A DNA stretch of 750 bases from Escherichia coli (GTDB taxonomy: Bacteria > Pseudomonadota > Gammaproteobacteria > Enterobacterales > Enterobacteriaceae), in NCBI RefSeq assembly GCF_003334255.1, contig NZ_QOWU01000193.1, one strand, 5' to 3'. The position numbers were made by a program, and so were the translations under genes. The stretch's first letter is position 1. Every line of letters starts with the position of its first letter. The notes under the pieces were generated by a model. The model saw only the letters and a program-made list of their open reading frames with translations, did not search any database and was not told the origin of the DNA. Positions 1-296 of this stretch are shown here, in pieces.

Positions 1-98
1 TAGCCGAAGGGGTCGACAGAACCACAATACGGGCAACACACTGTATTATGAGTAATCGCGTTTCCACAGTCCCTGCACTTCTTTTTGCGTATCACCAT
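1..98 (-). CDS. Candidate small zinc-ribbon protein (CxxC-x9-CCxxC), divergently oriented; C-terminal end at or beyond the left window edge
   Basis: Seen in sequence: reverse-complement ATG at 96-98, preceded on the - strand by AGGAGG (+ coords 104-109, 'cctcct') with a 5-nt spacer; frame open down to position 3 (32 codons: MVIRKKKCRDCGNAITHNTVCCPYCGSVDPFG). The next codon starts TA (positions 1-2) with its third base outside the window, so it is either a stop (giving a 32-aa protein) or Tyr. Four-Cys spacing C8-x2-C11-x9-C21C22-x2-C25 is typical of a zinc ribbon. Short and not verifiable by homology here, so moderate confidence. Confidence 0.45.
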   Translation of the reverse strand, partial: MVIRKKKCRDCGNAITHNTVCCPYCGSVDPFG

Positions 99-103
99 CA
101 CTC

Positions 104-109
104 CCTCCT
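104..109 (-). promoter_or_regulatory. Shine-Dalgarno (AGGAGG) for the - strand small ORF starting at 98
   Basis: + strand 'cctcct' at 104-109 is AGGAGG on the - strand, 5 nt upstream of the - strand ATG (96-98); seen directly. Confidence 0.5.
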
Positions 110-129
110 CACAGCCTTACCCGTAACCG

Positions 130-148
130 GTTTTTTACATTAAAAAAC
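130..148. repeat. Perfect AT-rich inverted repeat, 8-bp arms with 3-nt spacer (GTTTTTTA-CAT-TAAAAAAC); function unknown, candidate operator or promoter-associated site
   Basis: Seen in sequence: 130-137 'gtttttta' is the exact reverse complement of 141-148 'taaaaaac'; flanking bases (129 g / 149 g) do not extend the symmetry. Immediately adjacent to the palindrome AACCGGTT (125-132). Lies about 32 nt upstream of the - strand ORF start. Confidence is for the repeat itself, not for any function. Confidence 0.85.
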
Positions 149-268
149 GACGCTGAAAATTCAACCGTCAGTCCGGAGACGACCGTTCGGGTTATCACAG
201 AGTGCCTGAGACAGTGTCCTGCCGGAGGTCACTTCAGGGACTCTGCGTATTTTTTACGACGTGGCTAT

Positions 269-287
269 TCCGTATGAACCATACGGA
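269..287. repeat. Perfect inverted repeat, 8-bp arms with 3-nt spacer (TCCGTATG-AAC-CATACGGA), overlapping the Shine-Dalgarno of the + CDS; candidate operator or RBS-occluding hairpin
   Basis: Seen in sequence: 269-276 'tccgtatg' is the exact reverse complement of 280-287 'catacgga'; symmetry ends at 268/288. The right arm covers G285-G286-A287 of the GGAG Shine-Dalgarno; the element ends 9 nt before ATG 297. Confidence is for the repeat itself, not for any function. Confidence 0.85.
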
Positions 288-288
288 G
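285..288 (+). promoter_or_regulatory. Shine-Dalgarno (GGAG) for the + CDS starting at 297
   Basis: GGAG at 285-288, 8 nt upstream of ATG 297; seen directly. Confidence 0.6.
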
Positions 289-296
289 ATTTAACC

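Follow-up and report, generated by a model that had tools for sequence, protein, structure and literature searches.

A small zinc-ribbon gene divergent from a Gp2-like gene in Escherichia coli islands encodes a candidate tail-anchored membrane protein

What does the small open reading frame (ORF) that runs off the left edge of a 750-nt stretch of Escherichia coli DNA encode, and what could its product do for the genomic island that carries it? The stretch (contig NZ_QOWU01000193.1 of assembly GCF_003334255.1, here called the window) holds the 5′ part of this minus-strand ORF and, on the plus strand, most of an 'inovirus Gp2 family' gene. We find that the small ORF very probably specifies a real, translated 66-residue protein with an N-terminal zinc ribbon and a C-terminal membrane anchor. 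Our best overall explanation, to which we give slightly less than an even chance, is that it is an accessory gene of SRL-PAI/CP4-57-like islands of Escherichia and Shigella, whose product would act as a tail-anchored ribbon tether.

The original prediction described a divergent minus-strand ORF starting at 98 behind a well-spaced AGGAGG Shine-Dalgarno (SD) sequence, and the sequence bears this out. The AGGAGG core (109-104) is separated by a 5-nt spacer from the ATG at 98-96, and the extended element TGAGGAGG can anneal to the 16S anti-SD over 8 bp (-12.7 kcal/mol); among random 20-mers matched to the composition of the window, only 0.35% get to -11 kcal/mol or lower. The 5′ region folds without significant structure (z = -1.2), leaving the SD exposed. 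Two GTG codons share the frame (101-99 and 95-93), which a TAA closes upstream (Table 1), so the possible starts are limited to GTG 101, ATG 98 and GTG 95. Across diverged loci, six of nine retain the strong SD; the remaining three (L005, L006 and L007, positions 3001-3006) carry GAGGGAG (-7.7 kcal/mol) together with ATC in place of ATG, so that the following GTG is the likelier start there, although the Prokaryotic Genome Annotation Pipeline (PGAP) nonetheless starts the coding sequence (CDS) at ATC. The small ORF is probably translated. A 31-aa ATG ORF on the plus strand (48-143), antisense to the 5′ end of the small gene and unannotated in the RefSeq records examined, is regarded as spurious.

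Within the window the frame reads MVIRKKKCRDCGNAITHNTVCCPYCGSVDPFG and breaks off at the partial codon 'TA', which had been taken for a possible stop of a 32-aa microprotein. Once the sequence left of position 1 was obtained, the edge codon proved to be TAC (Tyr), with 34 further codons outside the window and a TGA stop after 103 nt. The complete CDS is L001:11898-12098(-), where L001 is the island locus holding the window and window position n corresponds to L001 position 12000+n; its 66 codons give the product MVIRKKKCRDCGNAITHNTVCCPYCGSVDPFGYYRNTDRIVTILLALIIVVLLTTVSVSVCILCSW. The 32-aa form is thereby refuted. The other option, the N-terminus of a larger protein, held insofar as the ORF continues to 66 aa, but the remainder is only a C-terminal transmembrane (TM) helix (residues 40-66), which falls outside the window. 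The lysine-rich start and the motif CxxC-x9-CCxxC are present exactly as predicted, and the window covers the basic N-terminus (RKKK), the whole Cys4 ribbon and the beginning of a conserved DPFGYYRNTDR segment.

To the N-terminal half, AlphaFold2 (AF2) with a 30-sequence alignment assigned a beta hairpin (strands 5-7 and 14-16; predicted local distance difference test score, pLDDT, 74-79), followed by one long helix at 33-65 (pLDDT ~90); a shallower alignment gave the same helix and a less confident head. In the window copy, residues 40-66 carry no charge, have a mean Kyte-Doolittle hydropathy of 2.66 and run to the terminal W66, so a single TM helix occupies the C-terminal extreme with essentially nothing after it, as in tail-anchored proteins. 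Seven Lys/Arg residues precede the helix and none follows, which fits the positive-inside rule. A Cys4 site requires a reducing compartment. Taken together, the charge distribution and the Cys4 site lead us to infer an N-in topology, in which the N-terminal domain would lie in the cytoplasm and the helix would anchor the protein in the inner membrane.

The presumably cytoplasmic head has the spacing of a zinc-ribbon knuckle (C8-x2-C11, x10, C22-P-Y-C25), and zinc binding by this Cys4 site is predicted accordingly from the motif. A search of zinc-ribbon families, as had been proposed, returned generic ribbon matches, all of them below threshold. In Pfam the best independent E-values were 0.014 (zf-ChsH2), 0.022 (UPF0547), 0.074 (DZR) and 0.092 (Zn_ribbon_3), none past threshold, and in NCBIfam nothing passed either, NF033497 reaching 16.6 bits against a cutoff of 32. 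A Foldseek comparison with the PDB gave nothing significant (all E-values >=0.68); its low root-mean-square-deviation local matches (23-30 residues, 1.2-2.2 Å), likewise not significant, were mostly to Cys4 ribbons or rubredoxin knuckles, including Trf, the reverse gyrase finger, ChsH2, L40e and other small ribosomal zinc-ribbon proteins, and the LapB rubredoxin domain. A sequence search of the PDB found nothing below E = 0.04.

Selection separates the two halves of the protein. Over codons 2-39 in eight diverged copies, the ratio of nonsynonymous to synonymous substitution rates (dN/dS) was 0.06-0.29 in well-diverged pairs, and the pooled ratio of the corresponding polymorphisms (pN/pS) was 0.26 in the ORF frame versus 1.36 and 0.65 in the shifted frames; variable sites at codon positions 1, 2 and 3 numbered 10, 14 and 27. 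The ribbon half is, on these substitution patterns, under purifying selection. Invariant in 14 intact proteins are I3, R4, K5, C8, R9, H17, N18, T19, C22, P23 and C25 in the ribbon and G32, Y33, Y34, R35, T37, D38, R39, L44, L47, L52 and S59 after it; in the alignment of intact members C11 is at least 90% conserved and C21 nearly invariant. The tail (codons 40-66) falls into three sequence types, between which dN/dS is ~1 or above. All three types comprise 25-27 uncharged residues with a mean Kyte-Doolittle value of 2.45-2.69, and the open frame and a length of 64-66 aa are kept across them, with 54-67% nucleotide identity to the window copy in the 3′ half. A constrained head joined to a helix that keeps mostly its hydrophobicity favours an anchor with a binding module over an effector helix.

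The surroundings of the gene are conserved unevenly. Mean pairwise identity among diverged copies is ~0.89 over the intergenic region and ~0.9 over the Gp2-like gene, versus 0.79 and 0.69 for the two halves of the small ORF. The ~200 nt after its stop (L001 ~11700-11897) are essentially non-homologous among copies (identity 0.03-0.18 to the window copy), so the 3′ half of the ORF adjoins a hypervariable segment, past which a block containing hha is conserved again. In the same locus pairs, synonymous divergence (dS) of the N-terminal half of the ORF was 0.3-1.7 versus 0.03-0.30 for the Gp2-like gene (Fisher p 3e-3 to 8e-9; L001, L005, L007-L009). This contrast points to mosaic ancestry or recombination at the small ORF, as read from the alignments; such a mosaic may have arisen through element-specific diversification or simply through recombination.

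The gene had been expected to be easy to miss in automated annotation; it is not. PGAP lists it as WP_001297219.1, 'hypothetical protein', and called a CDS in 54 of 60 copies in a spread sample. The six unannotated copies comprised four 200-nt alleles with a 1-nt deletion, one insertion and one 39-nt remnant, and one further copy was flagged as frameshifted. The exact protein sequence occurs in at least 1000 public contigs, and some records label it 'zinc-ribbon domain-containing protein' or 'predicted nucleic acid-binding Zn ribbon protein'. The whole window matches many E. coli chromosomes at 100%, for example that of ATCC 11775 (NZ_CP033092.2 4154108-4154857); the exact allele of the gene is also present in strains 042 and S88. 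Window-like DNA was found in 3635 of 5426 complete E. coli genomes and ORF-matching DNA in 3473 of them. These carry a median of 2 copies and at most 6, nearly all on the chromosome, roughly 6000 copies in total. Loss of frame or cysteines in related elements had been named as the finding that would count against the gene; only a minority of copies is frameshifted or lacks a cysteine. From its pattern of sequence conservation, we conclude that the flagged ORF is a real protein-coding gene, of which a minority of copies is decaying.

Close relatives appear restricted to Escherichia and Shigella, apart from occasional records in Salmonella and Klebsiella. A peptide scan across GTDB species representatives confirmed no relative, and a scan of species-representative genomes with a conserved intergenic 24-mer gave a single match, to a 683-nt 'Paenibacillus' contig. 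This contig (NZ_WACP01000054.1, L010; 0.59x coverage; Paenibacillus tengchongensis assembly) carries a piece of the E. coli island that takes in part of the small ORF, and it probably contaminates that assembly. The phage collection held no copy except for a 4.4-kb unannotated fragment, OR844780.1 ('Escherichia phage ECO111 5-P', 4468 nt, unannotated), which starts inside the ORF with the first 20 codons 100% identical (positions 1-60) and has the look of a piece of the island, not of a phage genome. The plasmid collection gave few matches, several of them in megabase-sized records. In K-12, a counterpart sought beside yfjJ and yagK was found in neither CP4-57 nor CP4-6.

In a profile search of 1.84 billion representatives, just 25 proteins reached E <= 1e-10. 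Each one that was checked proved to be of the Escherichia family itself, often as a frameshifted or truncated variant. A remote set of 56-80 aa proteins (E = 1e-4 to 1e-6) has two CxxC motifs, an (S)xDPFG segment, basic residues and a TM helix. By tblastn the small protein and a remote relative are 42% identical over 48 residues, and remote members match PF13248 Zn_ribbon_3 and PF13240 Zn_Ribbon_1 at ~4e-7 (3.6e-7). In PHROGs, three unknown-function families of 136-178 aa weakly match residues 6-59 (best E 2e-5), sharing only the N-terminal ribbon and the helix. Three remote members were placed on contigs, each as a lone opposite-strand gene, two in conjugative-transfer clusters and one in an ICE-like (integrative and conjugative element-like) region: near a DotM_C gene, where it overlaps a called gene on the opposite strand (L011 5001-5237); inside a transfer cluster with TraN, TraF, TraH, TraG and TraD (L013 5001-5219); and in an ICE-like SSB/AcaB/SNF2 region (L014 5001-5228).

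The host island has an SRL-PAI/CP4-like backbone of a GTPase, Ag43, DUF932, antirestriction and RadC-like genes and an AlpA-like helix-turn-helix regulator, followed in order by Hha, the small ORF, the Gp2-like gene, two zinc-ribbon proteins and IS66; the fec operon lies farther along. Such islands are rich in pseudogenes and in toxin-antitoxin and defence cargo. The Shigella SRL PAI shows the matching order orf39 (YfjJ-like), orf40 (Hha) and orf41 (Vis/AlpA), and its 2001-era ORF list, updated in the same source, has no ORF between orf39 and orf40 (PMC6980539 Table 2). We examined nine copies of the module, including one Salmonella contig. The small ORF is divergent from the 189-aa PF11726 (YagK_YfjJ_C) gene in all nine, which together with the cysteines kept in intact members bears out the expected conservation and synteny; an hha gene or remnant lies past its 3′ end in eight of nine, and one or two DUF7828/Zn_ribbon_11 genes lie downstream of the Gp2-like gene wherever the DNA is intact.

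The prediction of an adjoining island replication-type gene also held. The Gp2-like protein combines its PF11726 match with an HUH motif (HYH, aa 94-96) followed by LMLLV, a weak REP_ORF2-G2P match and a YLAK motif at aa 168-171, beyond the window. The YagK/YfjJ family is uncharacterised, and these sequence motifs would fit a rolling-circle Rep or a relaxase-like nuclease. The downstream pair in L001 (13126-13949) consists of two overlapping genes of 133 and 144 aa with DUF7828 plus Zn_ribbon_11 and a C-terminal CxxC-x8/9-(C)CxxC, one of which reads CVMCDEDYEGEKCCPRCGTG, resembling the ribbon of the small ORF. No sigma-factor gene was found within the module in the nine copies. A zinc-binding anti-sigma factor (ZAS, zf-HC2) was considered as an identity for the small protein and rejected, the HxxxCxxC motif, a zf-HC2 Pfam match and a module sigma gene all being absent.

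How might a ribbon on a membrane anchor serve such a module? We tentatively propose a membrane tether. Residues 1-39, comprising the basic N-terminus, the Cys4 ribbon (C8/C11/C22/C25) and the juxtamembrane DPFGYYRNTDR, would face the cytoplasm, and residues 40-66 would form a single TM helix in the inner membrane, acting mainly as an anchor. The ribbon and the juxtamembrane surface would bind a cytoplasmic partner and keep it at the inner membrane, the candidates being nucleic acid or a module protein (the HUH Rep-like Gp2 or the two DUF7828/Zn_ribbon_11 proteins). Expression would come from the conserved bidirectional region common to both genes and would be co-regulated with the Gp2-like gene. 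The finding that remote relatives of the same layout also sit in mobile elements supports this proposal. A wider reading, which we rate as quite improbable, would unite the small protein and its remote relatives in one undescribed family of tail-anchored zinc-ribbon microproteins, peculiar to mobile elements, that ties a step of element DNA processing to the inner membrane, for example by tethering an HUH Rep/Gp2-like initiator or transferred single-stranded DNA, with the fast-diverging helix and downstream DNA as an element-specific incompatibility or exclusion determinant.

Several observations weigh against our overall explanation. Some copies are broken, L006 being frameshifted and L008 lacking C25, and such frameshifted and cysteine-loss copies imply that the gene is dispensable in many hosts. 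The tail dN/dS of ~1 or higher could signify relaxed or diversifying selection, and the invariant L44, L47, L52 and S59 hint that the helix may do more than anchor. A comparison by hhalign of the family with the remote set gave a probability of 99.4%, a value that is partly circular, the remote set having been picked from the family's own hits. BLASTP between the small protein and the two downstream zinc-ribbon proteins was not significant, with only the CCPxCG word in common. A scan of the window found no consensus sigma-70 promoter, and the two promoter-like sites seen over a larger stretch are no more than chance would give. Literature searches by accession, peptide string and topic found no paper on the protein.

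Known proteins offer partial likenesses. PF13248, PF13240 and PF12773 (DZR) domains, families with no function assigned, often precede a TM segment in uncharacterised 'zinc-ribbon domain-containing' proteins, and they likewise have two CxxC motifs ~10 residues apart at the N-terminus, a basic stretch and a TM helix; the E. coli protein differs from them in its sub-threshold scores, an extra cysteine (CCxxC), its own DPFGYYRNTDR segment and the lack of anything past the helix. DUF2116 (PF09889, 'probable treble clef', ~59 aa, uncharacterised) belongs to the same size class and joins a ribbon to a hydrophobic tail; the remote relative P0099 matches it over residues 7-58 (E = 0.005), and the window protein has no significant match. 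ZitP of Caulobacter crescentus has an N-terminal cytoplasmic zinc finger followed by a TM helix and recruits PopZ to the membrane. Its zinc-finger head on a membrane anchor serves as a protein tether, as proposed here, by analogy only: ZitP is a far bigger protein with a finger of another family and, in the periplasm, a DUF3426 domain, and no sequence relation was found between the two. The C-tail-anchored E. coli inner-membrane proteins ElaB, YqjD, YgaM, Flk, DjlC and TssL place a functional part in the cytoplasm ahead of a single C-terminal helix, as is predicted here, but they are larger proteins that lack a zinc ribbon, and none is homologous. TssL is described as a YidC-inserted tail-anchored protein (PMC3426401).

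A membrane-active toxin or exclusion factor, in the manner of type I toxins, holins, abortive-infection or entry-exclusion proteins, would instead make the helix the effector, serving island stabilisation or defence. We consider this unlikely. The protein is small, with one very hydrophobic helix, and sits in an island rich in toxin-antitoxin and defence cargo; it shares size, helix and mobile or cryptic element carriage with Hok, Ldr, TisB, Ibs, ShoB and ZorO. Nowhere does the module vary more than in the helix and the DNA that directly follows it, and the synonymous divergence of the ORF is far above that of the adjacent Gp2-like gene. Arms-race loci often show such local variability. Remote relatives lie inside conjugative transfer operons, where exclusion genes occur. 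However, there is no toxin family among the Pfam, NCBIfam and PADLOC matches of the small protein; PADLOC gave no family for it at E <= 0.1, and for three neighbours a single match (E = 0.063). Rfam showed no antisense or small RNA nearby, with no match in the window or in L001 10400-14200 (3.8 kb), although an undescribed small RNA is possible. Type I toxin mRNAs typically sequester their SD, whereas the SD here is strong, unstructured and exposed, and selection acts on the conserved, presumably cytoplasmic Cys4 head instead of on the helix. To our knowledge, no known type I toxin has a zinc ribbon.

Less likely again is a modulator in the manner of MgrB, AcrZ or MgtS, tuning a larger inner-membrane protein of the host or the island (a transporter, sensor kinase or secretion component, for instance). 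Among bacterial single-helix small proteins, modulation of a membrane protein is the role most often known (review PMC12648545), and the four invariant helix residues would suit it; but the constant neighbours are soluble, none of them a membrane protein, and the helix sequence varies from one island lineage to another, in contrast to the constrained, presumably cytoplasmic head. It is very improbable that the ORF is decaying or functionless, left over from a longer protein that combined ribbon and TM helix with an outer domain, and carried along by the conserved regulatory DNA adjoining it. The greater length of the matched PHROG families, the frameshifted and cysteine-loss alleles in pseudogene-rich islands and the adjoining intergenic DNA that is more conserved than the ORF all speak for it; against it stand a low pN/pS in the ORF frame alone with variation mostly at third positions, the open frame, length and hydrophobic end kept over three tail types, and the retained strong SD. 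We give next to no chance to a soluble 32-aa microprotein or the soluble regulator or nucleic-acid-binding factor of the original prediction, for which the basic RKKK plus ribbon and the 'nucleic acid-binding' name in one source could be cited, given the TAC at the edge and the predicted helix into which the ribbon leads (AF2, above), a 27-residue uncharged hydrophobic stretch present in every intact family member.

For the tail-anchored ribbon protein as we favour it, much was already known: the gene is annotated, several sources carry a zinc-ribbon label and the domain types are ordinary. New here are the 66-aa tail-anchored gene model, the evidence of selection, the fixed position in the island core and the link to a wider set of small proteins of the zinc-ribbon-DPFG-helix type on mobile elements. 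We regard it as an ordinary, uncharacterised island accessory gene, one that is present in about two-thirds of complete E. coli genomes, often in multiple copies, in the core of SRL-PAI/CP4-like islands that carry virulence, resistance and defence cargo. If the protein does tether an island replication or regulatory factor, it would offer a handle on the control of island excision, replication or transfer, and a characterised example for a large class of zinc-ribbon-plus-helix small proteins without assigned function; if it proves to be just an accessory peptide that hosts can do without, the correction of the gene model (66 aa, membrane-anchored) still stands.

Table 1. Features of the window and the evidence for each
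Feature	Position	Strand	Evidence
66-codon zinc-ribbon gene, first 32.7 codons	1..98	-	RefSeq CDS WP_001297219.1, conservation, structure prediction
Cysteine codons C8, C11, C21, C22, C25	77-75, 68-66, 38-36, 35-33, 26-24	-	
Shine-Dalgarno TGAGGAGG	104..111	-	anti-SD duplex -12.7 kcal/mol; kept at 6/9 diverged loci
In-frame upstream TAA	117..119	-	read from sequence
Divergent intergenic region, 198 nt	99..296	.	conservation among diverged copies
Gp2-like neighbour (ATG 297-299), first 151 of 189 codons	297..750	+	PF11726 match; HYH at 576-584

The divergent intergenic region (Table 1) is presumably a bidirectional control region for the small ORF and the Gp2-like gene, and its being more conserved than the small ORF suggests dense regulatory content. 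A scan of the window for consensus terminators found none. In the 3′ part of the small ORF, a promoter-like CTGACA-17-AATAAT lies antisense to the gene (L001 11929-11957, plus strand), such sites being no more numerous than in shuffled sequence. A perfect 8-bp AT-rich inverted repeat, GTTTTTTA-CAT-TAAAAAAC (130-148), stands 19 nt upstream of the small ORF's SD and is kept in six aligned copies; by its position it could be an operator or promoter element. A second perfect 8-bp inverted repeat, TCCGTATG-AAC-CATACGGA (269-287), lies immediately upstream of the Gp2-like gene. Folded as RNA (255-330), it forms a predicted hairpin over the Gp2-like GGAG and ATG (-15.7 kcal/mol, z = -2.59), which may exert translational control of the Rep-like gene, and in diverged copies its stem is maintained while the loop is enlarged from 3 to 8 nt.

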